Shown here piece after piece: positions 1-64,000 of a stretch of 64,000 nt of DNA; the stretch's first letter is position 1, and every line of letters begins with the position of its first letter. The position numbers and the translations under genes are program-made. The notes under the pieces were generated by a model that ran no database searches, was not told the origin of the DNA, and saw nothing but the letters and a program-made list of their open reading frames with translations. The stretch covers positions 31,538-95,537 of the forward strand of contig JAYWGM010000041.1 of assembly GCA_043778225.1 (NCBI GenBank), read 5' to 3'. The stretch is from Deinococcales bacterium (GTDB taxonomy: Bacteria; Deinococcota; Deinococci; Deinococcales; JAAFIG01).

Positions 1-928
1 AATGCGGCTGAGTCTCGAGGAAATCCGAGTCATCCACAATTTCAAGAATAACGTTGTGCATCGGGTACGGTTTACGCTGGTCTGGATGAATAATCTCGAG
101 CAAACGCGGAGTTTTGCGCTGTTTGGAATCCTTAGAAATTTGCAAAGGTGTGGTTTGTTTGGCATTGCTTGGCAAGTACGACAACAACAGCTTTATTTTC
201 TCGAGGACATCGCGGTCGTTGTTGCCTTCCAGATGACAGACCCCAGATTTAGAACTGTGGACATCTGCGCCACCGAGTTCCTCGAAGGTCACATCTTCTC
301 GAGTCACGCTTTTTATTACTTCTGGACCAGTGATAAACATATAGCTGCTGCCTCGAGCCATAACAATAAAATCGGTCAGGGCTGGGCTATAGACTGCACC
401 TCCGGCACATGGACCAAGAATCGCACTGATTTGTGGCACGACCCCACTGTAAATCGCATTGCGATAAAAAATTTCGCCGTACCCAGATAAACTGTCCACG
501 CCTTCTTGAATCCTTGCGCCAGCCGAATCATTTAAGCCAATAATCGGACAGCCAACTTTGACCGCTAAATCCATGACCTTGGTGATTTTAGCGGCGTTCA
601 TTTTGCCAAGGCTACCGCCCAACACCGTAAAATCTTGACTAAAAACACAGACTTTGCGTCCATGAACTGTACCAAAGCCTGTGACCACGCCTTCGCCCGG
701 TACATCCACACCTGCCATTAAGTGGCTCTCGAGGTGTTCGACAAAAACACTGGTTTCAACAAAACTGCCTGTGTCCAAAAGCACTTCGATTCGTTCTCGA
801 GCGGTCAGTTTACCTTGGTCGTGTTGTTTTTTTTGTTTTTCAAAACCTCCACCAAGGTGCAGGGCTTTGCGCCGTTCTTCCATCTCGGCGAGGGCGGCTT
901 GGAAAAAACCAACAGCGTTATCAGACAT
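1..928 (-). CDS. pccB: Acyl-CoA (propionyl/methylmalonyl-CoA-type) carboxylase, carboxyltransferase beta subunit; 3' end runs off the window
   Basis: Not in the ORF track; manual translation from ATG at 928: MSDNAVGFFQ...GKLTARERIEVLLD...GEGVVTGFG...SQDFTVLGGSLG...DSAGARIQEG...SGVVPQISAILGPCAGGAVYSPALTD, hallmark carboxyltransferase motifs. Start overlaps the acuC stop (TAATG). Confidence 0.88.
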   Translation of the reverse strand, partial: MSDNAVGFFQAALAEMEERRKALHLGGGFEKQKKQHDQGKLTARERIEVLLDTGSFVETSVFVEHLESHLMAGVDVPGEGVVTGFGTVHGRKVCVFSQDFTVLGGSLGKMNAAKITKVMDLAVKVGCPIIGLNDSAGARIQEGVDSLSGYGEIFYRNAIYSGVVPQISAILGPCAGGAVYSPALTDFIVMARGSSYMFITGPEVIKSVTREDVTFEELGGADVHSSKSGVCHLEGNNDRDVLEKIKLLLSYLPSNAKQTTPLQISKDSKQRKTPRLLEIIHPDQRKPYPMHNVILEIVDDSDFLETQPH

Positions 929-2058
929 TACGAAATTCTACTATTTTTCCACATCTCGAGGAGTTCTGTTACGGTTTGGGTATTGGTGGCTTCAATAAGG
1001 CTACGCCGTGGAATCTCGAGCGGCGTGTCGGTCATGAGGTGTGGCAGGATTTCGCTGCTTTGGGGTTGCCACGTCTCGAGCCATGTTTGCGGCACAGCAT
1101 TTGGCAATTGGATATGCTCGAGGGCTGCGTACAATTCTGCCCAGATTCGCGGCACAGCATGAAGCGTGGCATAACCACCGCCGCCCGTAGCAAGTATTTT
1201 TCCATTGGTGTACTGGGCTGCCAGTTGCACAATTAAGCGGTAGGCTTTGGCGTAGCCTTGGGTGGTCAGACCCAAATCTGCCAGTGGGTCAAATTCATGT
1301 GCATCTGCGCCACCTTGCAACACCAGCACATCGGGCTTAAACCATGAAAGCGCCGGCGTAAGAACCCGCTCTAATACCTCAAGAAACGACTCATCTTGGG
1401 TGTACGGCTCGAGCGGCACGTTGAGGCTGTAGCCCATGCCAGCGCCGCGTCCGAGTTCATAAGTTGCGCCAGTCCCCGGAAATAAATAGCGCCCCGTTTC
1501 GTGCAAAGAAATCGTTAAGACATTGTTTTCGCTGTAATGCAGCCATTGCACACCATCGCCGTGATGTGCGTCTATATCGAGGTACGCGACCCGTAAACCT
1601 TGCGCCGTCAAATGCCGAATCGCAATAGACAAGTCGTTGTAGACACAAAAACCACTGCCTGAAGCCAATTGCGCGTGATGCAAGCCACCAGCTAAACTCA
1701 GCACTTTTTGGGCAATGCCAGAAGCAATCAGCCGTGCGCCCTCGAGTGTGCCACCACAAACCGAAGCTGTGGCATTGTGCATTCCAGCAAAAATTGGTGT
1801 GTCGGACGTTCCAATGCCGTACTCGAGCGCATCTGGCACAGACTCAAGGTTCGAGGCTCGCATCACGCGCTGCACATAACCACGCGAATGGGTGGTCAAA
1901 ATATCTTCAAGACTGGCTGGTAAAAAATCTTTGACCAAAAGCGGCACACCAAAGCACTCAAGTAAATGCTTAACGGCCTCAGGGCGAATACTCTTGAACG
2001 GATGATGCTGCCCAAGGTCGTAAGAAAGCGTGACAGGATTAAATAAAAAGGTCGTCAT
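928..2058 (-). CDS. acuC: Acetoin utilization protein AcuC / HDAC-family Zn-dependent lysine deacetylase
   Basis: GGLHHA, SGFCVYND, YLDIDAHHGDGVQ, SLHETG, GGGGY motifs; adjacent to acuA-like gene. Confidence 0.9.
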   Translation of the reverse strand: MTTFLFNPVTLSYDLGQHHPFKSIRPEAVKHLLECFGVPLLVKDFLPASLEDILTTHSRGYVQRVMRASNLESVPDALEYGIGTSDTPIFAGMHNATASVCGGTLEGARLIASGIAQKVLSLAGGLHHAQLASGSGFCVYNDLSIAIRHLTAQGLRVAYLDIDAHHGDGVQWLHYSENNVLTISLHETGRYLFPGTGATYELGRGAGMGYSLNVPLEPYTQDESFLEVLERVLTPALSWFKPDVLVLQGGADAHEFDPLADLGLTTQGYAKAYRLIVQLAAQYTNGKILATGGGGYATLHAVPRIWAELYAALEHIQLPNAVPQTWLETWQPQSSEILPHLMTDTPLEIPRRSLIEATNTQTVTELLEMWKNSRIS

Positions 2059-2666
2059 CCGCGCAGCCCACCTTCGAGAAAACGCAAACGGTCAAATTCT
2101 GCTTTTAATTCTTCGCTTGCGCCCTCACCCACTCGAGCCATGAGGGAATTACCGGGATAGTAGGCAATTTCGGGGTCATCGGTCTTAAAAATCTGAAAGC
2201 CAACACTGCCATACATCCGCTCGAGTAATTTGCGGTAAGCATGGCTGGTCAAACCCGTGTTATCCAAATCAAAATGCCACTGGTAAATCGTGGCTATCAC
2301 AATTTTATTGTTGTACCGCCCAGTCCCAATACCAACCTCGAGCAGTGTCCGCGCCAAATGCCGCCCACGATGGGTTTTACTGGTCTCGACCGCCCCCAAC
2401 TCGAGCAAGCCAGCCACTCGAGAACCGCTCCAACGTTCAATTTCATCTGGTGGATGAAAAGTCGCATAGCCAATAATCCGATGTGCCAATTTAGCAATGC
2501 AAACGCAACTATCGTCAGAATTAGCAATGCTGACCAGCGCTTCTTTTTGCAATTCGGGTTCTCGAAAAACATTGAGGCTTTGTTCCATCTCGAGCCGCGC
2601 AATTAAATTCGGGTCGGCACAAGGCAGCACTTCGATACTGCCATACGGACTCGAGATTAGACGCAT
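2055..2666 (-). CDS. acuA: AcuA-like GNAT acetyltransferase
   Basis: IIGYATFHPPDEIERW, LLELGAVE, WHFDL, TDDPEI...NSLMARVG resemble Bacillus AcuA; coupled to acuC. Confidence 0.85.
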   Translation of the reverse strand: MRLISSPYGSIEVLPCADPNLIARLEMEQSLNVFREPELQKEALVSIANSDDSCVCIAKLAHRIIGYATFHPPDEIERWSGSRVAGLLELGAVETSKTHRGRHLARTLLEVGIGTGRYNNKIVIATIYQWHFDLDNTGLTSHAYRKLLERMYGSVGFQIFKTDDPEIAYYPGNSLMARVGEGASEELKAEFDRLRFLEGGLRG

Positions 2667-2670
2667 AAGG

Positions 2671-3498
2671 CTATTCTACTGTTTTAATTGGTCTCGAGTC
2701 GTCCGAAACCCAATCTGACCAACTGCCTGCATAGAGTTTCGCACCGTGCAGCCCACCAAGCTCGAGCGAAAGCAAATTGGCACAAGCACTGACCCCACTA
2801 CCGCAATACACAATCGTGTCCGCAGCAGTCTCGAGGTCAAAGCGTTGGCGTTGGGCGTTGGCATCTTTCCAAAAGCCATTTTCCAGAGCGCTTGCCCAGA
2901 CTATATTTTGGGCATCTGGGATATGCCCAGCTTTTTTATCGAGCGGTTCGATTTCGCCACGGTAACGTTCTGGCGCTCGAGAATCAATTAAAATTGTGCC
3001 AGTTGCTCGAGTTGCCACATCCTCGGCACTTGCTAACATCTCTGGGCGCACTCGAGGAACAAAAAGGCTTTTAGGATGTGCTGGCGTGTCAGTCTCGAGC
3101 GAACCCGTCCACGCACCAATCCCACCATCCAAAACTTTTACTTGGTCATGCCCAAGGTAACGCAGCAACCACCACAAATGCGCCGCGTAAAACCCCTGCC
3201 CAGAACTTGGGTCGTCGTAAGCCACAATTAAATGCTGGTTGCCAATGCCAAGGCTCGAGAGTCGGGCTGCCAAAATTTCTGGGTTTGGCAGAGGATGCCG
3301 CCCTCCTGTGCCATTTGGGTGTTTGGCACTCGAGAGGTCGGTTTCTAAGTCCAAAAAAATGGCGTTTGGGATATGCCCAGCAAGGTACGCCTCGAGACCT
3401 ACCGAAGGTTTGCCCAGCCAAAAACGTGTGTCCACAATCCGAATATCTGGGTTTCTAATGTTCTCGAGCAGCCAAGTTGAACTTACGAGTGGATTCAT
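2671..3498 (-). CDS. Tandem-rhodanese sulfurtransferase (SseA/TST family)
   Basis: GHIPNA, GRHPLP, active-site YCGSGVSAC, LYAGSWSDW. Confidence 0.9.
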   Translation of the reverse strand: MNPLVSSTWLLENIRNPDIRIVDTRFWLGKPSVGLEAYLAGHIPNAIFLDLETDLSSAKHPNGTGGRHPLPNPEILAARLSSLGIGNQHLIVAYDDPSSGQGFYAAHLWWLLRYLGHDQVKVLDGGIGAWTGSLETDTPAHPKSLFVPRVRPEMLASAEDVATRATGTILIDSRAPERYRGEIEPLDKKAGHIPDAQNIVWASALENGFWKDANAQRQRFDLETAADTIVYCGSGVSACANLLSLELGGLHGAKLYAGSWSDWVSDDSRPIKTVE

Positions 3499-4949
3499 GC
3501 TTTATTATGCACAATTTCTGCCCATGCCGCCAAATAATCTACCGTCCAGTGCATTAGTTTTTCGACGCTACCGACTGTAAAATACTCGTCGGGCGCATGA
3601 GCGCGGTCGCCGTGTCCCGTCCCCGCTATCGAAAACGGAATTTGCTTCCCGAGTGTGGTCAGTAAACTGGCTGGACAACAATTATTGGCAATTGCCCAAA
3701 CCGAAAGCGGTACTTGGTGGGCGGCGGCGACCACTCGAGCTGCTTGGAGCAAAGTGTCATCGGCTTCGGGCAGCGCGGCGGCGGCGCTATAACCACGCAA
3801 CTGGCGCAACTTGACCATATTGTGACCGCGCTTATTCAAATGCTCTTGCACCAAATCTGCCACCTCTTCTGGGGTCACTCCCGGCGGAAAACGAATGTCC
3901 ACTTTGGCTCGAGCCTTGCCTGGCATATTGGTGTAGTACACATCGTCTTGGTAGCCGCCTTGCACACCCTGAACATTGATTGTGGCTGCCAACATATAGT
4001 GGGCTAAATGCTCGGAGAGGCGCTTGCCACCTAAAAACTTTTTGACATTCAAGTTGTGCAACATATTGGCTTCCCACTGCGGGTTATCCAAAAATAATTG
4101 CTCGAGTTGCTGTACTTCGGGGCTATCGGGCTGGACTGGAAGCTCGAGGCGTTCGGTCAAACCATCCACAGTCAGGCGCTGCTCGTCGGTGTAGAGCGTG
4201 CCAAGGGCTCTGACCAAGCGCATTAGGGGCGCATCTATCCAAGCGCTGTTGCCCGCCCAGACGTGGCGCGAATCAGCCGTACCGCCCCATGCTCCGCCGT
4301 TGCACTCGAGGGTCGCAAAGAGTGTTCCCTTAAAAGCCCGGCGCAGCGTCATTGTGCCAGCGCTGTTTTGCTGCATACAAGGCAGCCATGCACCCTGAGC
4401 TTTCTCGAGGAGTTCGCGGTGCTGTTCGACAAAAGCCGCCATGCTGGGGCTGCCAATTTCTTCTTCGCCTTCGATTAAGTAAATTAAGTTTACTGGCATT
4501 TCTGTGCCGCTCTCGAGGATGGCAGCCACACCAAGAATACTTGCCAACACGGGTCCTTTATGGTTATTCGCGCCGCGCCCAACCACAATCTGCCCAAGGT
4601 GCGGCAATAACCCAAGGTCAGCAGCTTCAACAATCCGCGCCTCGAGTGGCGGCACAGACCATTCTTCTTCCCAAGTCGGGGTGATGTCGTACAAGCCATA
4701 AACCAGTAACCACGGTGCATTGGGGTTACTCGAGCGAACTGTCCCCATCACCATTGGATGCCCAGCCGTTGGGTAAACGGCTGCATCTGGCGCGATGCGT
4801 TGCAAAAGATTCTTGGCGTATTCCGCACCCTCGAGTATTCCCACGCCCGTATCGGAAAAACTTGGTACGCGAATCCAGTCGCGCACCGCCTCGAGTGATT
4901 CGGTGGCTCGAGACGTAATTAAATCGTGGGTGATTTTATAATCATTCAT
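3495..4949 (-). CDS. M20/M25/M40 family metallo-hydrolase (dipeptidase-like)
   Basis: YGLYD, GRGANNHKG, EGEEEIGSP, AHAPDEY; some usual metal ligands (YGHYD, DDKG) are altered. Confidence 0.8.
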   Translation of the reverse strand: MNDYKITHDLITSRATESLEAVRDWIRVPSFSDTGVGILEGAEYAKNLLQRIAPDAAVYPTAGHPMVMGTVRSSNPNAPWLLVYGLYDITPTWEEEWSVPPLEARIVEAADLGLLPHLGQIVVGRGANNHKGPVLASILGVAAILESGTEMPVNLIYLIEGEEEIGSPSMAAFVEQHRELLEKAQGAWLPCMQQNSAGTMTLRRAFKGTLFATLECNGGAWGGTADSRHVWAGNSAWIDAPLMRLVRALGTLYTDEQRLTVDGLTERLELPVQPDSPEVQQLEQLFLDNPQWEANMLHNLNVKKFLGGKRLSEHLAHYMLAATINVQGVQGGYQDDVYYTNMPGKARAKVDIRFPPGVTPEEVADLVQEHLNKRGHNMVKLRQLRGYSAAAALPEADDTLLQAARVVAAAHQVPLSVWAIANNCCPASLLTTLGKQIPFSIAGTGHGDRAHAPDEYFTVGSVEKLMHWTVDYLAAWAEIVHNKA

Positions 4950-5857
4950 TTTTTATCAATCCCTAATTGGTTGCGCCATTGTGCAATACTTTTTCCAAGT
5001 ACCTGATTTTGCAGTGTTTTGGGGTAAAAGATTGTATTAATTTGAGAGTCGTAAATACGCCAGATTTTACCAAAATTATCTGATTCTTTTTCAAAAACTG
5101 TGCCTTTCAGTTGATAGGCAACACTTTTTGTTTTGGTTTTATTCAAAGCAGCTTCGGCAGTAGGAGGAAGTTCGATTCGCCTAGCAGCCGAAACGTTACC
5201 TTGGTTAAATTCTCGTACACCACCTGCTAACCAGATGTTATCACGGCGCTGGGCTAAAGCTCGAGCATTGCCAATATAGGGTTCTAAAAGTTTTGGCGTA
5301 CCAGAAATAAGTTTGGTCATGCACCACGGAAAAAGTACCAGCAGGGAATCATCACGAATAAGATTGGGCGCAGCTTCAAAGCGAGCCGTAATGTCGTCAA
5401 TTGCAAATACAAACCATGATTTTATTTCGATAGATAAAAGAAAACGCTTATGCTGACGGTCAACCAAGTATAAATCTGGGAATTGTACTGCGTTGCGAAC
5501 AAATTCTAAATTAGGGTCGGTTGTCCAACTGCTTTTCAAAGCAGAATTCAGTTGTGTACCAATAAGCTCTTCAATACCTTGCCCAACGTAATTGTTAAAG
5601 CGATTAAGCAACCCAAGATACCCTTTGCATTGTTGAGCCAAAGTTTCTTCTTCATCATTATGGCTTGCCAAATTTGCTGTCTCCAATTCAATCGCTTCAA
5701 ACCGAGGCATTGAAATCTCGAGGTCATCATGTAAAAGCATTCCCGCCAAACCAAAAATCGCTTTTTTTATTCGTGCAGTCATGTCTGGATGGGTAGACTC
5801 GAGTAATCCAGTCGCAAAATGGTATTCGGTTTGTTGAGTCAAACTCAGTGTTTTCAT
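4946..5857 (-). CDS. Putative type II restriction endonuclease (PD-(D/E)xK)
   Basis: FPDLYL...SIEIKSW matches PD-xn-ExK; lies downstream of an HTH gene and divergent from a DNA methyltransferase; AT-rich. Confidence 0.6.
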   Translation of the reverse strand: MKTLSLTQQTEYHFATGLLESTHPDMTARIKKAIFGLAGMLLHDDLEISMPRFEAIELETANLASHNDEEETLAQQCKGYLGLLNRFNNYVGQGIEELIGTQLNSALKSSWTTDPNLEFVRNAVQFPDLYLVDRQHKRFLLSIEIKSWFVFAIDDITARFEAAPNLIRDDSLLVLFPWCMTKLISGTPKLLEPYIGNARALAQRRDNIWLAGGVREFNQGNVSAARRIELPPTAEAALNKTKTKSVAYQLKGTVFEKESDNFGKIWRIYDSQINTIFYPKTLQNQVLGKSIAQWRNQLGIDKK

Positions 5858-6099
5858 ACGATTTCCTCTATGTACTCGAGAATGTCGCTAACTTGAATGG
5901 TTTTACCAGTCAATTGCCGTAAGCCCAAAATCACAAGGGACAGGGTACTTAAATCAACTCGAGTTGGTTCTTGTCCAATCCGTACTAAACGATAAATTGT
6001 ATTTGGACGGGTTTTTTCAGCAAGGATACGGGCTAGTGCGTAAGCACTTTTTCCTTCTTGCTCGAGCAAAGAACGAAGTTTCCAACGGGTTTTTGGCAT
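5854..6099 (-). CDS. Small XRE-like HTH regulator, probable R-M controller protein
   Basis: 81 aa, KSAYALARILAEKTRPNTIYRL helix-turn-helix; ATGA-coupled to the nuclease gene. Confidence 0.7.
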   Translation of the reverse strand: MPKTRWKLRSLLEQEGKSAYALARILAEKTRPNTIYRLVRIGQEPTRVDLSTLSLVILGLRQLTGKTIQVSDILEYIEEIV

Positions 6100-6107
6100 G
6101 ATACACA

Positions 6108-6162
6108 GTAACCGACACGCTTTATCTGTTACCAGTTGCGCTATTTGTTACCATGATATGAT
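6108..6162. promoter_or_regulatory. Divergent control region of the R-M cassette: TGTTACCA direct repeats plus a -10 box for a probably leaderless MTase transcript
   Basis: TGTTACCA at 6127-6134 and 6146-6153, inverted GTAAC at 6108-6112; TATGAT at 6157-6162, 6 nt before ATG 6169. Confidence 0.45.
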
Positions 6163-6168
6163 GGTTGT

Positions 6169-7203
6169 ATGTCCGTTTCTGTGCTGACTCAAGCAATGCC
6201 AAGCCGTTTTGAACCCCAAACCATTCAAAGCGCCCAGGTGTTTTTAGCTGATGCCTTGGATGTTTATTCGCTTTGGGCAACTCCGACCATTATTTTTTCA
6301 GATGGAGCGTATGGTATCGGTGGTTTTGCTGGCGACCCCGTTCAGCCATCGGGTTTACGAGAATGGTACGAACCTCATGTGCGTCAATGGTCAGCCAAAG
6401 CCAATGGTCAAACAACCCTTTGGTTCTGGAATACCGAAGTTGGTTGGGCAACTGTTCATCCCTTGCTACTCGAGTATGGCTGGGAATACCGTGGCTGTAA
6501 TATATGGGATAAAGGCATTGGACATATTGCTGGAAATGCCAATACCAAAACCTTACGAAAATTTCCTGTTGTCACCGAAGTATGCGCTCATTACACCAAA
6601 GCAGTTCGTTTTGATTTTCAGGGACAGCAGCTTTCGATGCAGCAATGGTTACGCGCCGAGTGGTTACGGACAGGCTTACCGTTAAGTAAAACTAATCAGG
6701 CTTGTGGTGTGGTAAATGCGGCTACCCGAAAATACTTTACCAATTGCCACTTATGGTATTACCCTCCCGTAGAAATGTTTGAAAAAATTGTTGAATATGC
6801 CAATCGTTACGGAGAGCTTTCCCAACGACCCTATTTTTCAGTCAATGGTCTCGAGCCACTATCGGCTTTAGAATGGGGGCAAATGCGAGCAAAATTTAAG
6901 CTCGAGTACGGGATTACCAATGTTTGGTCTACACCACCAGTGCGTGGCACGGAACGACTCAAAAACAGTCATGGTACACTCCACGCCAATCAAAAGCCAC
7001 TTTCTTTAACTGAACGTTTAATTCTTGCAACTTCTGAACCCAACGACATCATTTGGGAACCATTCGGTGGACTTGCCACCGCAGCCCTAGCCGCAATTCT
7101 CAATGACCGTCAGTGCCTAACTGCCGAGATTTCAGAATCTACCTATAAAGACGCAATTCAAAGACTACGGCTCGAGTCAGAGCGCCTTGCTTTGAATTTC
7201 TAA
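6169..7203 (+). CDS. Site-specific DNA amino-methyltransferase (N4-C/N6-A), beta class
   Basis: N-terminal catalytic-type motif IFSDGAYG, central WDKG, C-terminal HANQKP...IIWEPFGGLAT SAM-binding motif. Confidence 0.82.
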   Translation: MSVSVLTQAMPSRFEPQTIQSAQVFLADALDVYSLWATPTIIFSDGAYGIGGFAGDPVQPSGLREWYEPHVRQWSAKANGQTTLWFWNTEVGWATVHPLLLEYGWEYRGCNIWDKGIGHIAGNANTKTLRKFPVVTEVCAHYTKAVRFDFQGQQLSMQQWLRAEWLRTGLPLSKTNQACGVVNAATRKYFTNCHLWYYPPVEMFEKIVEYANRYGELSQRPYFSVNGLEPLSALEWGQMRAKFKLEYGITNVWSTPPVRGTERLKNSHGTLHANQKPLSLTERLILATSEPNDIIWEPFGGLATAALAAILNDRQCLTAEISESTYKDAIQRLRLESERLALNF

Positions 7204-7223
7204 TCTTTGAATTTAGGTCTGGT

Positions 7224-8399
7224 TCATAACGCCTCGGCAGCCGCAAAACCAGCTTCAAGGTCTGCCCAGAGGTCTTCAGGATGCTCGAGTCCAATGCTCA
7301 GGCGAATCAAATTTTTAGGCACATCAAAACGCACAAATGGATTGAGCGAGTCGCGCCGTTGAAAGCCCAGTACCGCCGGAAAAACCAGACTCTCAAAGCC
7401 GCCCCAACTGACCCCGAGCTTAAAATACTCGAGCCGATTAATAAAGCGCTTGATTGCGTCAGTATCGGCTTTAATTTCAAAACTCAATAAGCCACTTGTG
7501 CCATCTAGCCGTGCCGCCAAGTCGCGTTGGGCAAAACTTTTTAAGCCCGGATAGTTTACTCGAGCTACCAGAGCATGAGCTTCTAAGCGCGAGGCAAACT
7601 CGAGCGCACTTTTTTGGTGGGCTGCCATCCGCAAGGGTAAGGTTCGTAAGCCGCGCAACAACAACCAAGCCTCGAATGGCGCAAGTTTCCCGCCCAGCAC
7701 CGTATACTCGAGCGCGTTGATGCGTTTAATGTCGGCACTGCGCCCGACCAGCACACCCGCCACAGTATCCGAATGTCCACCAATGTATTTGGAGGCGCTG
7801 TGCAGTACCATGTCTATGCCGTACTCGAGCGGACGCTGGAAAATCGGAGTTGCCCACGAATTGTCTATGATGGTAAAGACCCCGTGTTCTTTGGCTAAGG
7901 CTGCCACAGCACTTAAATCTTGCAAATGAAAAAGCAGACTACTTGGACTCTCGAGGTAGAGTAAACTCGCACCAGGCAAGGCTCGAGCAATCGCATCTAA
8001 GTCGCGTCCGTCTACAAACTCAACTTCGATGCCGTAGCGTGGCGCAAGTTGGGTCAGGAACTTAAAAGCATCGGGGTAACAGCCCTCGACACAAACCACC
8101 CGTGACCCTGTTTGGGTCTGTGCCAAAATGGCGGTGCTGATGGCTGCCATGCCGCTCGAGAAGGCTCGGGCTTGTTCACCACGCTCGAGTTCAGCCATTT
8201 TCTGCTCGAAGACCTCGACGCTTGGGTTGTTACCACGTGAATACAGATGATGGCTGTCCGAGTCTACAAAGGCGGATTCCATTTGCTCAAAGGATTCAAA
8301 CGTAAACAACGAAGTCTGATAAATCGGTGGGACAACCGCTCCAAACGGGTAGCTCGAGTCGTGTGCCAGAATTGTTTGTGGATGACTCGATTTAGCCAT
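7224..8399 (-). CDS. PLP-dependent trans-sulfuration family enzyme (cystathionine gamma-synthase/beta-lyase-like)
   Basis: PPIYQTSLF, YSRGNNP, FSSGMAAI, DNSWATP, HSASKYIGGHSD, GVSWGGFESL. Confidence 0.9.
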   Translation of the reverse strand: MAKSSHPQTILAHDSSYPFGAVVPPIYQTSLFTFESFEQMESAFVDSDSHHLYSRGNNPSVEVFEQKMAELERGEQARAFSSGMAAISTAILAQTQTGSRVVCVEGCYPDAFKFLTQLAPRYGIEVEFVDGRDLDAIARALPGASLLYLESPSSLLFHLQDLSAVAALAKEHGVFTIIDNSWATPIFQRPLEYGIDMVLHSASKYIGGHSDTVAGVLVGRSADIKRINALEYTVLGGKLAPFEAWLLLRGLRTLPLRMAAHQKSALEFASRLEAHALVARVNYPGLKSFAQRDLAARLDGTSGLLSFEIKADTDAIKRFINRLEYFKLGVSWGGFESLVFPAVLGFQRRDSLNPFVRFDVPKNLIRLSIGLEHPEDLWADLEAGFAAAEAL

Positions 8400-8401
8400 G
8401 T

Positions 8402-10431: not shown

Positions 10432-10441
10432 TTAAGACCAC

Positions 10442-12320: not shown

Positions 12321-12348
12321 GAAAATGGAACTTGGTTTTTGCTACATT

Positions 12349-55553: not shown

Positions 55554-55566
55554 GCTTTAGCCTCAG

Positions 55567-55635: not shown

Positions 55636-55662
55636 AAACGCCATTGGATAGCCACCAGAAAT

Positions 55663-56409
55663 TCATGTCTCCCACCCTTGTTCCCGTAAAGTTTCGGAGC
55701 GTTCCCAAGCATTGACGTACTGGTCATGGATTCCGCCTGAAGTTTGCCTTGCCAATTCAACAAAAGCTGGCGTGATTAAAATCGGGTCTTTCCAGATTTT
55801 CTTGGTCTCGAGCGAATAGGTTTGTTCACTCATGCTGGTCTGTGTTGGTACGCCCGGGGTGATGGTATTGACGGCGATACCAAAACTTTCGAGATCTTTG
55901 GCAATGGCTCGAGAAAGTCCTTCTAAACCAAATTTTGAGGCACAATAAGCAATTTCGTTGGCAAAACCCAGCACTCCAGCCCGAGAAGAAACATTGATGA
56001 TTGAACCACTTTGGGCTTTTTTCATGGCGGGCGCAAAGGCTTGGCAAGTTAAAAAAGGTCCTCGCAGGTTGATGTTGATGATTCTGTCCCAGTCCTCGAG
56101 GGTGGTTTCTTCAAGGTGCTTTTCGATAATCACACCAGCCACATTGGCTAGAATATCAATCCGCCCATGTCCAGCCAAAACCGTTTCGGACAGCCGCGCT
56201 ACACTGCTTATTTCGAGTAAATCGGTCGGCACTGTCCATGCCTCGAGTCCAGCTTGACGCAAAAACTGCATTTCGGTCTCGAGTTCTTCGGTTTGGCGGT
56301 CTGCGCCGTAGACAATTGCGCCTTCTTGGGCAAAGGCTCGAGCCACGGCGCGTCCGATGCCTCGGGCTGCGCCTGTCACAACCGCCACCTTGCCCAAAAG
56401 TCGGTTCAT
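55663..56409 (-). CDS. SDR family oxidoreductase
   Basis: TGAARGIG, NVSS, YCASK; start reassigned to MNRLLGK. Confidence 0.88.
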   Translation of the reverse strand: MNRLLGKVAVVTGAARGIGRAVARAFAQEGAIVYGADRQTEELETEMQFLRQAGLEAWTVPTDLLEISSVARLSETVLAGHGRIDILANVAGVIIEKHLEETTLEDWDRIININLRGPFLTCQAFAPAMKKAQSGSIINVSSRAGVLGFANEIAYCASKFGLEGLSRAIAKDLESFGIAVNTITPGVPTQTSMSEQTYSLETKKIWKDPILITPAFVELARQTSGGIHDQYVNAWERSETLREQGWET

Positions 56410-57173
56410 GTTGCTACCCTTCCGCCGTCTATCAGCAGTCCAATGCCAGTCGTAAAGGAACTCATTTCGGATGCCAAATACAAAACCGTGCGGGCAATCT
56501 CGAGCGGCGTTCCCATCCGCCCAATCGGCGTGTTTTCCATCCACATGGCTCGGGTGGCGGCTTGGTCGGCTGCCAAGTCTAAGTTGCGCTGGTTCATTGG
56601 GGTGTCAATTACGCCTGGACAAATCGCATTAACCCGAATGTTCTGTCTCGAGTATTCAATCGCCAAAATGCGAGTCAGCGACATAATCGCGCCTTTAGAA
56701 GCGCCATAAGAAATGTTACCGCCAACATTGGCAAATGCCGAAACCGAGGAATTATTGACAATTGTGCCACCGCCAGACTCAAGCAAAAGGGGAATGGCGT
56801 GTTTGCAACAAAAAAATGTACCTTTGAGGTTAATGCCAATCACTCGGTCAAACAGTTCTTCGCTCACGTCCACACTGGGGGTTTTGGGTTGCTCGATTCC
56901 AGCATTATTAAAAATAGTGTGCAAAGCGCCGAATTTATCTTTAGCAGTGGCAACCATATTTTTAACATCGGCTTCTTTAGAAACATCGGTGCGGACAAAA
57001 ACCGCTTTTCCACCCGCCGCCATGATTTCTGCCACAGCACTTGAGCCACCCGCCTCGTCCACATCGGCAATCACCACGCTTGCACCTTCTTGGGCAAACA
57101 GAACGGCAGTTGCTCGACCCATGCCGTTACCAGCACCAGTCACAATGGCGACTTTGTTCTCGAGCCAATTCAT
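56406..57173 (-). CDS. SDR family oxidoreductase
   Basis: TGAGNGMG, NNAG, YGASK, IDGG. Confidence 0.9.
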   Translation of the reverse strand: MNWLENKVAIVTGAGNGMGRATAVLFAQEGASVVIADVDEAGGSSAVAEIMAAGGKAVFVRTDVSKEADVKNMVATAKDKFGALHTIFNNAGIEQPKTPSVDVSEELFDRVIGINLKGTFFCCKHAIPLLLESGGGTIVNNSSVSAFANVGGNISYGASKGAIMSLTRILAIEYSRQNIRVNAICPGVIDTPMNQRNLDLAADQAATRAMWMENTPIGRMGTPLEIARTVLYLASEMSSFTTGIGLLIDGGRVAT

Positions 57174-57907
57174 GATGCCCTCGATTCGGCAAATTGCGGC
57201 ACTGCTGCCACAAAAACCCCAGCCGTGTTTTGTGCCTCAAGCGTCATGTCGGCAAGTTCCAAGTGCTTAATCACCATTTGAATGTGCCGCCGCGCAGCTT
57301 GTTCGGCAGCCTTTGGGTTTTTCGTCGCTATCGCATCAAAAATGGCATGGTGTTCGGCTCGGACATCATCTCGAGAACGGCTTGTGCCACTTTTGGGGTC
57401 GCTCATGCGGCGAATTGTATTGCGTCGGTAAACGGCTGCTAACTCAGCCGCAATTTCGCTAAAACGAATCAAGTGGCGATTACCCGCCACTTCATAAATA
57501 TGATGATGGAATTGAAGGTCGCTGACCCATAAAGCACTCGAGTCAGATTCTTGGATCGGTGTTTCCCAAGCCTTTAGGTAGGTCTCGAGTTGCTTGATGT
57601 TCGGCTGGTCAATTCTTCCAGCCGCCAGAAAAGCCGCCACGCCATCTAAGCCCATCCGACACCAGTAGAGATTGACCACATCCTCGAGTTTTAAGACACT
57701 GACTTCTAAACGTCCGTTGAAATCATCAATCAGACCACGTTCACGCAGCATTACCAGTGCATTACTGATGGGGGTACGACTGACATTGAGTTGGGCTGCC
57801 AGTTCGACCTCGACCAAGCCATCGCCGGGGTGCAGTTCGCCGTTGATGATGCGGTCACGAATGTTTTCGTAAACTTGGTCGCGCAGTGCTTTTCCTCTGG
57901 AAATCAT
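57170..57907 (-). CDS. GntR (FCD) family transcriptional regulator
   Basis: ELAAQLNVSRTPI, DLQFH, EHHAIFDAI. Confidence 0.9.
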   Translation of the reverse strand: MISRGKALRDQVYENIRDRIINGELHPGDGLVEVELAAQLNVSRTPISNALVMLRERGLIDDFNGRLEVSVLKLEDVVNLYWCRMGLDGVAAFLAAGRIDQPNIKQLETYLKAWETPIQESDSSALWVSDLQFHHHIYEVAGNRHLIRFSEIAAELAAVYRRNTIRRMSDPKSGTSRSRDDVRAEHHAIFDAIATKNPKAAEQAARRHIQMVIKHLELADMTLEAQNTAGVFVAAVPQFAESRAS

Positions 57908-57938
57908 GGACTCCTTTCAAATAATCTCTCGGCATCCC

Positions 57939-57958
57939 GAATGCTGCATGCAGCATTC
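57939..57958. promoter_or_regulatory. Perfect 20-bp palindrome, putative GntR operator
   Basis: GAATGCTGCATGCAGCATTC between divergent gntR and amidohydrolase genes. Confidence 0.6.
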
Positions 57959-58046
57959 ATGTAGAATGTGGTACAGATTAGGTGACGCGAATCCGAAAGT
58001 CAAGTCTCCCCTTCCGCCCTCATTCATGAAAAGATAAGGATGCCTT

Positions 58047-59273
58047 ATGCCCGAAGCCCCCGCTTGGAAATTCGAGAAAATCATTAAACCGATGTTCGAT
58101 ACCATTCCCAAAGCTGTTCTTTTACGTGGTCGGGTGGTCAGTTGCCACGACCAAAGCGTTCTCGAGGATGGCATGATTGAACTCGAGAACGGCACAATCA
58201 AAGCTGTCGGGAACAGCCAAGACTTTGGCTCGAGAAGTGAGGATGCCCTACAAACCAACGGCACAATTTTGCCCGGTTTAATCAATTCCCATGCTCATCT
58301 GGCTTGGGATGGAATCCACGATTTGGCGCATCAGTCGATTTACGATTCACCACAAATCAGTGCTTACAAATGCGCCAGTAATATGTTGATTAGCCTCCAA
58401 GGTGGCATCACCACGGTGCGCGACCTTGGAATGCACGATACCAATTTGTTTGCCAAACAAGCCACCGAACAAGGCATTTTCCCCGGTCCTCGAGTGCTGG
58501 CGTGTGGGGCAGCCATTGTTCAGACTGGCGGGCATACTTATTGGGCGTGCCGTGAAGCCAGTGGTGCAGACGAAATGCGCCGAGCAGTGCGTGAACAAGT
58601 GCGGGCTGGCGCAGACTTAATTAAAATTATGGCAAGCCATGACCTCAACGAATTTACCGACGAAGAACTGCGTGCCGTGATAGACGAAGCTCACCGTAAT
58701 GGCTTACCGATTACTGCCCATGCCACGTTTGAAAGTGTGATTCGCCGCGTTGCCGAATTTGGCGTGGATTGCATCGAACACGGCGGTGACATGAGCGACC
58801 AAACCATTGCCCTGATTCTCGATAAAAACATTCCGATAGTTACAACCTTTGCGCCTCTGGTGATGCAGTCGGTTGCCGAAGTTGCCCGTCAGTACAACAT
58901 CCCCGAATGGAAAATTCTCGAGCGTCAAAAAGCAGTACAAAGCGGGGTGCGTTTTGCAGGCATTGTCAAAGCTGCCCAAGCTGGCGTGACGATTGGCTTT
59001 GGCACGGATGCGGGTAGCCCTGTTGTGCCGCATTCGGTGGTTGCGCCAGAACTCGAATTTATGATTAAACTTGGGGTTAAAAAGAATCCGCTCGAGGCGC
59101 TGCAATCCGCCACCAGCGTGGCGGCTGGCATTAACCATCTGGCAGATAAAATTGGCACGCTCGAGGTTGGTAAAATTGCCGATGTGATTGTGACTCACGG
59201 TCAGCCCGACCAGAATATTGCTGACATCTCGAGGGTGCAAATGGTCTTTGTTGGCGGCGTGCGCCGCGTTTAA
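58047..59273 (+). CDS. Metal-dependent amidohydrolase (start could be 58092)
   Basis: PGLINSHAH, TGGH, IKIM, TAHA, IEHG, GTDAG. Confidence 0.88.
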   Translation: MPEAPAWKFEKIIKPMFDTIPKAVLLRGRVVSCHDQSVLEDGMIELENGTIKAVGNSQDFGSRSEDALQTNGTILPGLINSHAHLAWDGIHDLAHQSIYDSPQISAYKCASNMLISLQGGITTVRDLGMHDTNLFAKQATEQGIFPGPRVLACGAAIVQTGGHTYWACREASGADEMRRAVREQVRAGADLIKIMASHDLNEFTDEELRAVIDEAHRNGLPITAHATFESVIRRVAEFGVDCIEHGGDMSDQTIALILDKNIPIVTTFAPLVMQSVAEVARQYNIPEWKILERQKAVQSGVRFAGIVKAAQAGVTIGFGTDAGSPVVPHSVVAPELEFMIKLGVKKNPLEALQSATSVAAGINHLADKIGTLEVGKIADVIVTHGQPDQNIADISRVQMVFVGGVRRV

Positions 59274-59295
59274 GGTAGAGACAACGTAGCCTCTC

Positions 59296-59340
59296 ACGAA
59301 CTCCCCCTCGCCTTAGGCTCGACCCCTCAAAGGAGGGGTA
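59296..59340. repeat. Family A REP-like hairpin
   Basis: ACGAACTCCCCCTCG...CGACCCCTC...GAGGGG. Confidence 0.65.
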
Positions 59341-59412
59341 CTGGGTTGCTCGGTAAATAAGGTAGCTTCAAATTTATGCCTCGAGAACAGCCTCATTTAA
59401 GGAGAAAAATCT

Positions 59413-60348
59413 ATGGAACAGCGTCAATTGGGCAATTCTGGCTTAAAAGTGTCTTTGGTTGGTATTGGTTGCAATAATTTTGGTGGTCGCGCCGACGCAG
59501 CCCAGTCTAAAATTGTGATTCGTAAAGCCCTCGATTTGGGGATTACGCTGTTTGATACCGCCGATGTCTACGGTGGCAAGGGCGGCTCAGAAACAATTCT
59601 TGGCGATTACCTTGGCTCTGAACGGCAAAACATTGTCTTAGCCACCAAATTTGGCTGGGATATGTCCGAAACCGACAAAGGTGCATCGCGGCGCTATATC
59701 TTAAAAGCTGTCCATGCCAGCTTAAAACGCCTTAAAACCGATTATATCGACCTGTACCAATTGCACACCCCAGACTCGAGTACCCCAATAGCCGAAACGC
59801 TTTCAACCCTCAACGACTTGGTGCGGGCTGGCACAGTGCGCTACATCGGTTGCTCGAATCTTAAATCTTGGCAAGTGGTCGAGGCGGTCTATATTGCCAA
59901 AGAACTTGGATTGGAGCATTTTATTTCCTGTCAAGACGAATACAGCTTGGTGATGCGTGATGCCGAACGCGAATTACTGCCCGCAATGCAAAAATATGGA
60001 CTGGGTTTGCTGCCTTATTTTCCGCTTGCCAGTGGTTTACTAAGCGGCAAATACCAACGCGGTGCGCCAATGCCCGACGGCGCACGACTGACCAAATCTC
60101 AAGGGCTTGCCGACCAGTACCTGACCGAAAAAAATTGGGAAATTGTCGAAAAACTCGAGGCTTTTTGCCAAGCCAGAGGTCACACCATCCTCGAGTTGGC
60201 TTTTGGCTGGTTGGCTGCCAATTCTGTCACCTCGAGCATCATTGCTGGGGCAACCAAGCCCGAGCAACTCGAGCAGAATGTGGCGGCGGTCAATTGGAAA
60301 TTAAATCCAAGCGAACTCGGGGAGATAAAACAAATTTTAGGTAACTAA
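59413..60348 (+). CDS. Aldo/keto reductase
   Basis: LGNSGLKVS, FDTADVYG, LATKFG, DYIDLYQLH, PLASGLL. Confidence 0.93.
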   Translation: MEQRQLGNSGLKVSLVGIGCNNFGGRADAAQSKIVIRKALDLGITLFDTADVYGGKGGSETILGDYLGSERQNIVLATKFGWDMSETDKGASRRYILKAVHASLKRLKTDYIDLYQLHTPDSSTPIAETLSTLNDLVRAGTVRYIGCSNLKSWQVVEAVYIAKELGLEHFISCQDEYSLVMRDAERELLPAMQKYGLGLLPYFPLASGLLSGKYQRGAPMPDGARLTKSQGLADQYLTEKNWEIVEKLEAFCQARGHTILELAFGWLAANSVTSSIIAGATKPEQLEQNVAAVNWKLNPSELGEIKQILGN

Positions 60349-60349
60349 A

Positions 60350-61105
60350 TTAAACCAAGGTGATTTTCACACCCGCGTTTTTTAATGCCAGTTGCAAATC
60401 CTTACCAATGCTCGAGTCAATCAGCAGTTCGCTGACGGCGTTTAATTCTGCAATTTGATACGGCGAAACCGCACCAAGTTTTTCGTTGCTGGCAAGGACA
60501 ATGGTCTCCGCCGCAGACTGCATCAAAGCCCGTTTGACATAGGCTTCCTCGAGGTTGCCTGTGGTAAAGCCATGTTGGGCATGAATTGCGGTCACGCCCA
60601 TAAAGTAAGTATCTGCCCGAATACGACCAATGGCTTCTATGGCAACTGCTCCAACACAAACAATTGAGTGCTTAAAGAGTTTGCCGCCAATCAAGACCAC
60701 TTCGATGTTGGGGTGTTGTACCAGTTCGACCGCAATGCTCGGGCTGTGGGTGATGATGGTTGCCTCGAGTTCGCGTGGCAGATAACGCACCAGTTGCGTG
60801 TTGGTTGTGCCACCATCTATAAAAACCACTTGTCGGGGCTGAATCATTTGAGCGGCTTTTTGTCCAAGGGATTTTTTACTTTGACTACCGAGGTTTTCTC
60901 GAGTCGCAAAATTTGCTATGGCTGGCGAGGCTGGCAATGCCCCACCATGAACCCTTTGCAACAGCCCCTCAGCAGCAAGTTCGCGCAAATCACGACGAAT
61001 TGTATCTTCGGATAAGCCAAGTTCGGCGCTGAAATCCTTGGCAATAAATTGCCCGTTGTGGCGAAGCCGCTCGAGAATCAGTTGTTTGCGTTGCGAAGTC
61101 AGCAT
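60350..61105 (-). CDS. DeoR/GlpR family regulator
   Basis: SEDTIRRDLREL, RVHGGA, IDGGTT; start reassigned to MLTSQR (TATAAT 6 nt upstream). Confidence 0.92.
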   Translation of the reverse strand: MLTSQRKQLILERLRHNGQFIAKDFSAELGLSEDTIRRDLRELAAEGLLQRVHGGALPASPAIANFATRENLGSQSKKSLGQKAAQMIQPRQVVFIDGGTTNTQLVRYLPRELEATIITHSPSIAVELVQHPNIEVVLIGGKLFKHSIVCVGAVAIEAIGRIRADTYFMGVTAIHAQHGFTTGNLEEAYVKRALMQSAAETIVLASNEKLGAVSPYQIAELNAVSELLIDSSIGKDLQLALKNAGVKITLV

Positions 61106-61120
61106 GACGAGATTATACAA

Positions 61121-61173
61121 TGTCACGATATTGCACGTTTTTTCTTGACACTGCACGTTTATGCGTGTATGCT
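61121..61173 (+). promoter_or_regulatory. Sigma70-type promoter overlapped by TGCACGTTT direct repeats (putative DeoR sites)
   Basis: TTGACA 61145-61150, 17-bp spacer, TATGCT 61168-61173; TGCACGTTT at 61132 and 61152. Confidence 0.6.
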
Positions 61174-61201
61174 TGAGTAGCCTTTGAGGCAGGGGGTCAA
61201 A

Positions 61202-61570
61202 ATGTCTAAACCGATGCTGATTCTTGTGGCTGGCGCATACCGCTCTGGCACAGATGACAACTCCGAAAAAATGCGTGCCAATCTGGATGTTCTCGAGCAA
61301 GCTGCACTGCAACTTTTTCGGTTAGGACACATTCCAATGATTGGCGAATGGGTTGCTTTACCACTGCTCAAAGTGGCTGGTTCAACACAAGTCGGAGATG
61401 CGCTCTACGAAGAAATTGTTTATCCAGCCGCCAAACGTCTGCTTGAGCATACCCAAGCTGTACTGCGCTTACCAAGTGCTTCCAAAGGCGCAGATAATGA
61501 TGTAAAAATCGCTTTAGGACGTGGTATTCCTGTGTATTACCAACTCGAGGACGTACCAACGTTAGAATAA
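61202..61570 (+). CDS. DUF4406-like protein (nucleoside deoxyribosyltransferase-like fold)
   Basis: ILVAGAYRSGT, GHIPMIGEW, AVLRLP..SKGAD.DV..A..RGIPVY. Confidence 0.6.
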   Translation: MSKPMLILVAGAYRSGTDDNSEKMRANLDVLEQAALQLFRLGHIPMIGEWVALPLLKVAGSTQVGDALYEEIVYPAAKRLLEHTQAVLRLPSASKGADNDVKIALGRGIPVYYQLEDVPTLE

Positions 61571-61574
61571 ATAC

Positions 61575-62333
61575 ATGACTCAACTTGTCGCTCTGATTAC
61601 TGGCGCAGCCCAAGGCATTGGCAAACGTACCGCCGAGGTCTTGGCTGAACGTGGTTTTGCTTTAGTGCTGAACGACCTTCGCCCGACCGAACTCGAGCTT
61701 GGTGTACCGACCCTCGAAGCCACTGGCGATATTTCTAGCGAAGCCACAGTCAAGCGTTTTGCAGCCCAAACTTTAGAACGTTTTGGGCGAATAGATGTGC
61801 TGGTCAACAACGCTGGCATCAGTTGTATTACGCCAGCCGAGGACACGACCCTCGAGCAGTGGCAGCGCGTGATGGAGGTCAACCTGACTGCACCATTTTT
61901 ACTTTGCCGTGAATTTGGCAAAATCATGCTCAAGCAAAAAAGTGGCAGTATTATCAACATCGCCAGTGTGGCGGGGTTGCTGGGCATTAGCGACCGCAGT
62001 GCTTACAACGCCAGTAAACACGGTCTGATTGGTCTGACCCGCACTTTAGCTGCCGAATGGGGCGGGCGCGGTGTGCGGGTCAATGCTGTTTGCCCCGGCT
62101 GGGTTTTGACCGAAATGGATCATGCCGATACGGGCGTTGGCACATACACCCATGGCGACATTACTGGGCGTGTCCCAATGGGGCGTTATGCCACGCCAGA
62201 CGACATTGCTAAGGCGGTGGCATTCTTAGCCGACTCGAGCCAATCTGGGTTTATCAACGGGCAAAGTTTATCGGTAGATGGTGGCTGGGCAAATGATGGC
62301 AGTTGGGAAAGTTTAAGGCTCAAAAAGCGTTAA
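61575..62333 (+). CDS. SDR family oxidoreductase
   Basis: TGAAQGIG, NNAG, YNASK, VDGG. Confidence 0.9.
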   Translation: MTQLVALITGAAQGIGKRTAEVLAERGFALVLNDLRPTELELGVPTLEATGDISSEATVKRFAAQTLERFGRIDVLVNNAGISCITPAEDTTLEQWQRVMEVNLTAPFLLCREFGKIMLKQKSGSIINIASVAGLLGISDRSAYNASKHGLIGLTRTLAAEWGGRGVRVNAVCPGWVLTEMDHADTGVGTYTHGDITGRVPMGRYATPDDIAKAVAFLADSSQSGFINGQSLSVDGGWANDGSWESLRLKKR

Positions 62334-63547
62334 GCCACTCGAGCTTCACGCCGAATGCCGAGGGCTAAAAATCCACCAATCATGGCGGTGATTCCAGCCA
62401 CGGTAAACGCCAAGGCATAATCGCCGTAGTTGTCTCGAGCCACGCCGCCTATCCAAGCTGCCATGGCTGCGCCAAGCTGATGCGCCGCAAAAACCCAGCC
62501 GTAAACAATGCCAACATTTTGTCGCCCAAAAGTTTTGGCAACCAACATCACGGTCGGTGGCACGGTGGCAATATAATCTAAGCCAAACAGCACCGCAAAA
62601 ATGCTTAACCCGCCAAGGTCGTGCATATACGGCAAAAACAATAAGCTGATGCCACGAAAAAAGTAATAAGTCAGCAACAAACGGCGCGGGTCGTAGCGGT
62701 CGGTCAGCCAACCCGAAGCAATCGTGCCGACAAAATTAAATGCCCCCATCAAAGCCACCACCCCCGCCGCCACAGGCTGGGCTAAGCCGTGGTCCACCGC
62801 ATGAGGAATCAGGTGCTGACCAATTAAACCGTTGCTGGTTGCGCCACAAATATAAAAGGTAATTGCCAATAACCAAAAATCGGGGTGAACCAAGGCTTTT
62901 TTCATGATTCCCAAATCGGCTTTTTGTGGCTCGAGCGGCGCATTGGTTGCACCAACTGGTCGCTGCCCAACTTCGGAGGGGTCTGAACGCATCAAAAACA
63001 AGACTGGTACAAGAACAGCAATCGTAATCAGTGCCAACACCAAAGCACTCGAGCGCCAACCCATACTGACTGCCAAGGTCGTTAGAAGCGGATAAAACAC
63101 CAATTGCCCAGCGCTGGTACTTGCGCCAAAAATACCAATCACCAGTCCGCGCCGCTCGACAAACCACCTGTTGGCAATGGTTGCACCCAGCACACTGGCG
63201 ACCAAACCTGTGCCGATGCCTAGCAACAAGCCAAAAAAGAGGTTGAGCTCGAGTTGGGTCTGTAATTGGCTCGAGAGCCACATCGCTAAGGCAGTGATGA
63301 CCAAACTAACCACCGTTACTGCCCGAACCCCAAATTTTGCCATCAGAAAGCCAGAAATTGGACCACCCAAGCCAAATAAAATTAAGCCCAGTCCAGTGGC
63401 TAAAGATAAACTTGCCCTCGACCAACCAGTGTCGCGTTCCATTTCAATCAGCCATGCGCCTGGAGCGCTGCGAGCGCCAGCCGTGACCAGCAGCACCACC
63501 GCCGTGACCGCCACAACAATCCAAGCGTAAGATGAATTACTTTTCAT
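62330..63547 (-). CDS. MFS transporter
   Basis: About 12 hydrophobic segments; RWFVERRG, GWLTDRY; start reassigned to MKSNSS. Confidence 0.88.
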   Translation of the reverse strand: MKSNSSYAWIVVAVTAVVLLVTAGARSAPGAWLIEMERDTGWSRASLSLATGLGLILFGLGGPISGFLMAKFGVRAVTVVSLVITALAMWLSSQLQTQLELNLFFGLLLGIGTGLVASVLGATIANRWFVERRGLVIGIFGASTSAGQLVFYPLLTTLAVSMGWRSSALVLALITIAVLVPVLFLMRSDPSEVGQRPVGATNAPLEPQKADLGIMKKALVHPDFWLLAITFYICGATSNGLIGQHLIPHAVDHGLAQPVAAGVVALMGAFNFVGTIASGWLTDRYDPRRLLLTYYFFRGISLLFLPYMHDLGGLSIFAVLFGLDYIATVPPTVMLVAKTFGRQNVGIVYGWVFAAHQLGAAMAAWIGGVARDNYGDYALAFTVAGITAMIGGFLALGIRREARVA

Positions 63548-63634
63548 CGGTAAATCATACCGCCTTGAATTGGTACAAAAAGGTATTGCTGCAAACCCTC
63601 TAAATCCAAGCTCGATTCTGCTAAACTCGAGCCG

Positions 63635-63850
63635 ATGAAATACCTTGGCGCAATTGGTGAAGTGTTGATTATTCTCGCGCTTGGCATTGGCGTAGGTCTG
63701 GGCTTGGCGTATGGTCAACTACACTTTAAGTGGAATCCACAAGCTGTGCAAATCGGTCTGGTGGCGGTTGGTCTGGCAATAAGTATTTGGGCGTTTTATG
63801 TCTATGCAAAATCAATCAAAGAATTTCACCAATCCCTAGACGACTGGTGA
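63635..63850 (+). CDS. Small two-TM hypothetical membrane protein
   Basis: 71 aa, two hydrophobic segments, TAAACT 7 nt before ATG, downstream hairpin. Confidence 0.55.
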   Translation: MKYLGAIGEVLIILALGIGVGLGLAYGQLHFKWNPQAVQIGLVAVGLAISIWAFYVYAKSIKEFHQSLDDW

Positions 63851-63876
63851 AATTCAAATGATAACCGTGTCACTCA

Positions 63877-63906
63877 AGACCCTCGAGAAAACAACCTCGA
63901 GGGTCT
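63877..63906. terminator. 11-bp stem-loop (possible terminator, no U-tract visible)
   Basis: AGACCCTCGAG-AAAACAAC-CTCGAGGGTCT. Confidence 0.5.
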
Positions 63907-63908
63907 AA

Positions 63909-64000
63909 GAGCGTGTTTATAAAGTGGGTAAAGTCGGTCAGAATTAAGCTGTGAAACAAAAAACCTATACCAGTAGCCTTACCCGTGAACAGTTTAAGCG
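63909..64000 (+). mobile_element. Left end of an IS5-family insertion sequence with the start of its transposase (GTG at 63951)
   Basis: TAA then GAGCGTGTTTATAAAGT end; ORF MKQKTYTSSLTREQFK resembles the IS5-family Y-x-S-x-L-T/S-x-E-Q-W/F N-terminus; truncated by the window. Confidence 0.6.

Follow-up and report, generated by a model that had tools for sequence, protein, structure and literature searches.

CTCGAG behaves like a highly iterated palindrome, protected against loss, in an uncultured family of Deinococcales

We analysed a 64,000-nucleotide stretch of contig JAYWGM010000041.1 from a Deinococcales bacterium (assembly GCA_043778225.1; hereafter the window) for the hexamer CTCGAG, and followed the word through the parent genome (G000; 4.03 Mb, 107 contigs, 89% complete) and its relatives. 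CTCGAG behaves like a highly iterated palindrome (HIP), as the original prediction held: it occurs in all frames and between genes throughout an uncultured family, is conserved, and has its loss suppressed. The window carries 376 sites (5.9 per kb), about threefold ahead of any other hexamer, against a mean of 7.7 and a maximum of 16 in 100 dinucleotide shuffles. Across 60 gene calls the sites divide 216/71/72 by frame, versus 25.0/5.5/4.7 in 200 synonymous-codon shuffles (maximum 36/12/10); a further 17 fall outside called genes, several of them probably within genes truncated by the window ends. The excess thus goes beyond codon and amino-acid bias: it neither vanishes in codon-preserving shuffles nor keeps to the Leu–Glu frame, the two outcomes that the prediction had named as fatal to itself. 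Its finer details, 11 sites within the first ~1.12 kb and two tandem pairs, were found where it had placed them (Table 1). The claim of iteration across the whole window holds nearly throughout, with one desert as the exception; that of intergenic hairpins holds for one clear two-site hairpin, the remaining intergenic sites folding only weakly. Contigs from two public runs (one study, possibly the source) match positions 28001–48000 with zero differences except short gaps at repeats, and the excess is therefore not an assembly artefact.

Genome-wide, G000 has 24,877 sites (6.2 per kb), with 4.0–10.6 per kb on every contig. This is 15-fold over an order-2 Markov expectation, and 63–73-fold over Markov models built with the sites masked, which expect 340–395. 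Among our own open reading frame (ORF) calls (3,720 ORFs of at least 80 amino acids), the frames hold 13,595/4,480/4,513 sites versus ~1,710/385/307 in 10 synonymous shuffles. Intergenic density is 5.9 per kb, and density stays flat around gene starts and stops. The word is exactly six bases, since TCGA drops to 0.82 of expectation once CTCGAG is masked and the nine one-mismatch classes lie near expectation (0.5–2.5 in the site-masked models, transition neighbours at ~2). A longer motif was rejected: there is no flank consensus, and flank effects track avoided words such as GAGCTC and GGCC. Avoidance of palindromes is itself extreme in G000, with 131 copies of GGCC in 4 Mb and around half of the 64 palindromic hexamers below 0.1 of expectation.

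Sites are scarce in recently acquired DNA. Density climbs with the guanine–cytosine (GC) content of genes, from 0.5 per kb at 32% GC to 7.9 per kb at 54%, and deserts are mostly low-GC; the window's own desert marks recently acquired DNA inside a foreign defence island. The tRNA genes of G000 are also poor in sites (6 in 5.7 kb), four of the six lying in a cluster of tRNA or tRNA-like genes (G000:C19, ~9900–12800). A pilin-like cluster (G000:C86:6151–11597) has just 9 in four genes (5.4 kb), far under the genome mean.

The word leaves its mark on proteins. Where no Glu follows, CTC makes up 9% of Leu codons, and where no Leu precedes, GAG makes up 22% of Glu codons. Within Leu–Glu pairs, by contrast, CTC GAG accounts for 13,564 of 19,611 in G000, equivalent to codon ratios of 22–42-fold. 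The dipeptide itself is raised 2.31-fold over expectation, Glu–Leu standing at 0.97 and Leu–Glu in 80 loci of other phyla at 1.0. Between G000 and its relative G003, CTCGAG is retained in protein segments of above-average variability. A force at the level of DNA is here powerful enough to raise a dipeptide twofold proteome-wide. That the excess is a by-product of codon use and neighbour-dependent composition is scarcely credible: G000 does have extreme word biases (GGCC at 0.01 and GATC at 0.2 of expectation), but the codon figures above, the masked TCGA value, the survival of the excess in shuffles of all frames and the suppression of loss described below already refute it for this genome.

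Sampling the order (121 genomes; raw sites per kb), we found 4.3–6.8 sites per kb in all 19 genomes of the uncultured family (57–94% complete), and a maximum of 3.1 in the other 102. G013, a single-contig, 60%-GC genome from another genus, has 4.6 per kb and a 2.17-fold Leu–Glu excess (800 of 5,085 kb read). Genomes of the order with 2–3 sites per kb spell 58% of 101 sampled Leu–Glu pairs CTCGAG; they belong to families with cultured members, giving a handle at the bench. Quite unlike its neighbours, a Deinococcus-like genus (g7) has few sites, 0.01–0.27 per kb across the 26 genomes sampled. As to placement, ribosomal protein S15 has its first matches in Thermus ribosome structures, and the way the order divides into families suggests Deinococcales, in line with the Deinococcota that the original prediction had guessed; a search with primer motifs gave no 16S gene in either the G000 assembly or the G013 sample. 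Full-text searches, whose coverage leaves out most subscription journals, returned no report of a CTCGAG excess in Deinococcota.

Conservation was measured across 245 orthologues of G000 and G003 (78% identity; 397 kb of G003's 4.5 Mb read). By frame, 649/974, 183/322 and 221/359 sites are kept (67/57/62%), against 29–30% for the median hexamer; CTCGAG ranks 20/922, 26/890 and 12/906 among hexamers. Four closer relatives (G001, G003, G004 and G005; 88–93% identical, ~30–55 kb of coding DNA per pair) allowed losses to be counted, in lineage-by-position trials that are not independent. Synonymous transitions that destroy a site were seen at 32 of 1,317 opportunities versus 1,393 of 13,284 neutral ones, a fourfold suppression (ratio 0.23, interval 0.16–0.32), and a second set gave 3/236 versus 1,068/18,045 (ratio 0.21). 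Suppression extends to all four change types, C>T, G>A, T>C and A>G, the tested positions being protected alike. The loss ratio translates into a population-scaled strength near 2.4, and the codon ratios into ~3–3.7. The data exclude a process that only creates sites and leaves them unprotected. A weak force at every intact duplex site explains the observations best, although selection and biased conversion fit the loss data alike.

Biased repair or gene conversion that brings no benefit, in which the intact copy wins at a mismatch in any DNA in the cell, phage included, is a rival, albeit an improbable one. It predicts the same loss suppression, an even spread of sites between coding and intergenic DNA, amino-acid replacements that serve no evident purpose and sites in CRISPR (clustered regularly interspaced short palindromic repeat) spacers; Deinococcota are also commonly polyploid. 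Vsr-type repair acts on one mismatch, however, whereas the tested positions here are protected equally, and the transition neighbours are enriched about twofold, not depleted. Nor is there a repair shadow beside conserved sites: four-fold-site divergence there is 0.98–1.05 of the gene mean, a partly saturated measure (49% diverged). One-step multi-base conversion was sought and gained no support, three-mismatch counterparts not being depleted in close pairs but lying in diverged patches like controls. These results speak against methylation-coupled repair that converts near-matches, which the original prediction had offered as one mechanism.

The prediction had also proposed a search for an XhoI/PaeR7I- or TaqI-like orphan methyltransferase, and here the outcome was negative. 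Two candidate enzymes came from other families of the order, an M.TaqI homologue (G025) and an XhoI-type orphan (G030), the latter inferred to be CTCGAG-specific because its homologue in G031 directly precedes an XhoI-family nuclease. The TaqI-like enzyme occurs in 17, the XhoI-type enzyme in 9 and the XhoI nuclease (PF04555) in 6 of the 121 genomes, and all three in 0 of the family's 19, which also sets the case apart from an XhoI/PaeR7I restriction–modification system with its encoded nuclease and methyltransferase. The TaqI_C domain is present in 6 of the 19. In genus g13 (1.4–3.0 sites per kb), density does not follow the XhoI-type enzyme, with 2.2–2.4 in the three genomes that have it and 1.4–3.0 in five where it was not found. 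All 16 genomes sampled from genus g9 (L224–L239) carry an M.TaqI homologue (53–58% to the G025 protein), an unusual constancy for a restriction methylase.

G000 itself has ~25 DNA methyltransferase genes, mostly beside nucleases. A search with four Pfam methyltransferase families in five relatives and G000 yielded no enzyme common to all six, and none of the five hits in G013 is close to those of G000; a motif scan for further methyltransferases returned 16 ORFs, the extra ones being of tRNA/rRNA type or unrelated. Two enzymes were rejected as the cause on their patchy distribution: the methyltransferase of the window's probable restriction–modification cassette (homologue in one of five relatives tested) and the beta-class orphan encoded on contig C101, for which 3 of 18 relatives have close homologues. 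A methylation-linked system, whether an orphan of unrecognised type or an ancestral XhoI-type orphan since lost, is therefore rather doubtful in our estimation. In its favour are the XhoI-type enzymes elsewhere in the order, the incompleteness of the family genomes, where an enzyme may sit on unassembled DNA, and the active orphan N6-methyladenine (m6A) CTCGAG methyltransferases listed for Marinithermus and two Meiothermus species by Blow et al. 2016 (PMC4752239). Against it stand the distributions above, the absence of the C-to-T excess expected for 5-methylcytosine and, for a relic of a lost enzyme, a loss that is still suppressed in recent lineages.

The word also appears in DNA that attacks the host. 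A type I-E CRISPR array in G000 (C80:17–2691) has 43 spacers, 42 of them without a second match in the genome. CTCGAG is present in 10, where host density predicts 7.3 and base composition 0.27; the same spacers contain GGCC once and GATC not at all. We infer that their targets are invaders, phage or plasmid, carrying CTCGAG at host density. No target was found among 80 analysed of at least 131 triple-site viral stretches, none of which matched the proteins or spacers of G000. The densest of these 80 are high-GC contigs with a general TCGA excess, among them a 68%-GC viral contig (L343/L344, IMGVR_UViG_3300029258_003487) with 7 sites per kb. A repeat search returned no phage of the CTCGAG-rich family, and no prophage was found among 141 proteins of 10 low-GC contigs.

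Neighbouring sites keep their distance. The pair correlation of CTCGAG is 0.31 at 6–11 bp, 0.46 at 12–17 bp and 0.73 at 18–23 bp, reaching ~1.04 beyond 90 bp, with no dip for control words; the close-pair deficit is repeated in G013. Scored against synonymous opportunities with amino acids fixed, the pair ratio is 0.80 at 7 bp, 0.27–0.49 at 8–13 bp, ~0.9 at 30–60 bp and 0.97 at 91–120 bp, leaving 7 bp as the one close spacing hardly depleted. The effect is in cis, since no mutual avoidance is seen between sites that are each private to a different genome. As a hairpin control, inverted 6-mer repeats of equal GC fall to 0.55–0.65 of their plateau at 8–11 bp, 0.84 at 12–17 bp and 0.87 at 7 bp. 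This general dip at 8–11 bp, with the same relief at 7 bp, weakens a protein-footprint reading of the deficit; the part specific to CTCGAG beyond the control is ~0.7 up to 23 bp and 0.9 up to 60 bp.

On a larger scale, spacing is under-dispersed at 50–500 bp (variance/mean 0.80–0.88). A simple periodogram over the 800 kb read of G013 gave a best power of 6.0 at 8–120 kb versus 4.5–10.2 for control words, and no short-range period stands out. A nucleoid protein coating the chromosome at CTCGAG, with a structural benefit, would suit the uniform density, the under-dispersion and, as a footprint, the residual close-pair deficit; HIP1 of cyanobacteria has been tied to chromosome structure (PMC5861425). 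We nonetheless hold such a coat unlikely. No 8–120 kb period rises above control words in that sample of G013, depletion is weakest at the closest non-overlapping spacing, contrary to a steric footprint, and the word is as dense in invader DNA as in the host. The spacers, and the lack of a visible period, likewise weaken the chromosome-organising role raised in the original prediction, whose remaining proposal, a binding or uptake signal, is the best open candidate.

The reading we tentatively favour, at somewhat less than even confidence, is that a putative protein recognises intact CTCGAG as a self-tag, helping DNA to be taken up, to recombine or to survive. It fits best because specificity is for the whole word, the positions tested are protected equally, neither a writer nor a repair shadow was found, the word is present in invaders, and returns diminish between neighbours. 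A sequence-specific protein, probably not a classical methyltransferase, would bind the site; DNA bearing it would be favoured when taken up, when recombining thereafter, or when exposed to degradation in the cell; selection or molecular drive would then multiply the sites until limits set by the proteins, and the smaller gain from each further neighbour, halted them, and phages or plasmids of the host would come under the same pressure. The competence machinery that an uptake signal requires is at hand, with ComEC in 18 of the 19 family genomes and ComEA, DprA and pilin-like genes in G000. By eye, four close relatives share alleles in mosaic fashion. HIP1 raises transformation (10.1101/2024.09.10.611283), and in Haemophilus a second uptake sequence less than 100 bp away brings no further benefit (PMC7811141).

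Several observations weigh against this self-tag. Our analysis identified no reader protein. Of 14 control genomes without a CTCGAG excess, 10 likewise have competence genes, which so do not discriminate. General hairpin avoidance explains the sharp part of the close-pair deficit, and intergenic pairs are depleted at 8–11 bp only (0.6). Faster gain of sites is weakly supported, with 7 gains in 55 opportunities against 4.3 expected and a 2.6-fold rise (interval 1.0–5.1) in the weak-to-strong subset. It is not obvious how an uptake bias would put the word into invader DNA, and to take up kilobase fragments far fewer sites than one per ~160 bp would do. Uptake sequences known so far are longer and not palindromic: those of Pasteurellaceae and Neisseriaceae span 9–10 bp and have a flanking consensus, whereas CTCGAG is a 6-bp palindrome with no consensus around it.

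In other respects the two resemble each other. Like the Pasteurellaceae and Neisseriaceae sequences (PMC7811141), CTCGAG accumulates by point mutation, is scarce in new DNA, presses on proteins and adds little in close pairs; it is unlike them in density (6 against ~1 per kb) and in being known from sequence alone, sequence-biased uptake by a receptor being a defining trait of uptake sequences. The closer likeness is to HIP1 (GCGATCGC) and to alternate HIPs such as GGCGCC of cyanobacteria, which PMC4390886 and PMC5861425 present as palindromes over-represented tens-fold. Like HIP1, CTCGAG lies in all frames and between genes, is conserved beyond codon needs and has an unexplained cause. It differs in phylum, in word, in lacking a flank extension and in abundance, at 6,200 per Mb against the 300–2,700 per Mb given for HIP1 by Elhai 2015 (PMC4390886). 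In that paper alternate HIPs are 75–100% GC, where CTCGAG is 67%, and nearly every HIP is reported to have a conserved cognate methyltransferase, where the search here found none. A 10–90 kb periodicity counts among the HIP criteria; for CTCGAG no long-range one was seen in a simple periodogram of part of one genome, which is not the method of Xu et al. 2018. CTCGAG thus works like a HIP, yet we do not class it as one by Elhai's definition, since a search for the cognate methyltransferase returned none. The predicted HIP-like system stands for its iterated behaviour and gains no support for its methylation branch.

Two other systems share the word. The Marinithermus and Meiothermus orphans are from the same order (Blow et al. 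2016, PMC4752239), but the G030 and G025 enzyme families were not found in any of the 19 family genomes and do not track density in g13. In Nocardia, according to that paper, CTCGAG clusters at the replication origin with an orphan methyltransferase; here it is genome-wide and inside genes.

The window also holds features apart from CTCGAG (Table 1). A nucleotidyltransferase-like gene (DUF6036) lies just upstream of the PDC-M60-like island. Two long catabolic clusters (7224–19544 and 36997–61312) include three tandem-SnoaL genes with a sugar ATP-binding cassette transporter, as well as an oligopeptide transporter surrounded by numerous amidohydrolases and M20/M14 peptidases. An intergenic repeat with a long hairpin (36713–36990) recurs in many copies in G000 and relatives and has no Rfam match, as is true of the whole window; the public-run contigs break there.

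Table 1. Positions of CTCGAG features and selected loci in the 64-kb window
Feature	Position	Strand	Basis or remark
Dispersed CTCGAG sites (376)	14..63901	none	Counts, shuffles, frame tally
Early CTCGAG sites (11)	14..1122	none	Count; first at 14, last starts at 1117
Tandem pair CTCGAG-N-CTCGAG	21565..21577	none	Starts 21565/21572, 7-bp spacing
Second tandem CTCGAG pair	37243..37255	none	Starts 37243/37250, 7-bp spacing
Hairpin outside called genes, one CTCGAG per arm	63877..63906	none	Fold of ~-25 kcal/mol
CTCGAG desert	23722..28015	none	0 sites in 4.3 kb, 38% GC; overlies PDC-M60-like candidate defence genes
Probable type II restriction–modification cassette	4946..7203	mixed	ORFs and weak Pfam match
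Nuclease-like ORF of cassette	4946-5857	-	No Pfam family
Small helix–turn–helix ORF of cassette	5854-6099	-	
N6/N4 methyltransferase of cassette, unusual	6169-7203	+	Weak PF01555 match; no PADLOC match at 1e-20
Low-GC three-gene island	22605-27854		PADLOC PDC-M60A (1,186 amino acids), small response regulator, PDC-M60C (response-regulator and nucleoside-phosphorylase domains)

HIP1 has gone without explanation for 30 years, the leading ideas being methyltransferases, chromosome structure and DNA uptake. A second HIP-like case, in another phylum, 2–20 times denser, apparently free of a cognate methylase, present in invaders and not visibly periodic, separates these ideas. In its boldest form, a methylation-independent self-tag that any DNA, chromosome or invader, must carry every 100–200 bp for uptake, recombination or sparing, our reading is improbable. 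If true, the tag would have rewritten ~11,000 dipeptides and forced mobile elements into mimicry; such a system would turn restriction on its head, and HIP-like behaviour would have arisen here independently, showing that it has no need of methylases.

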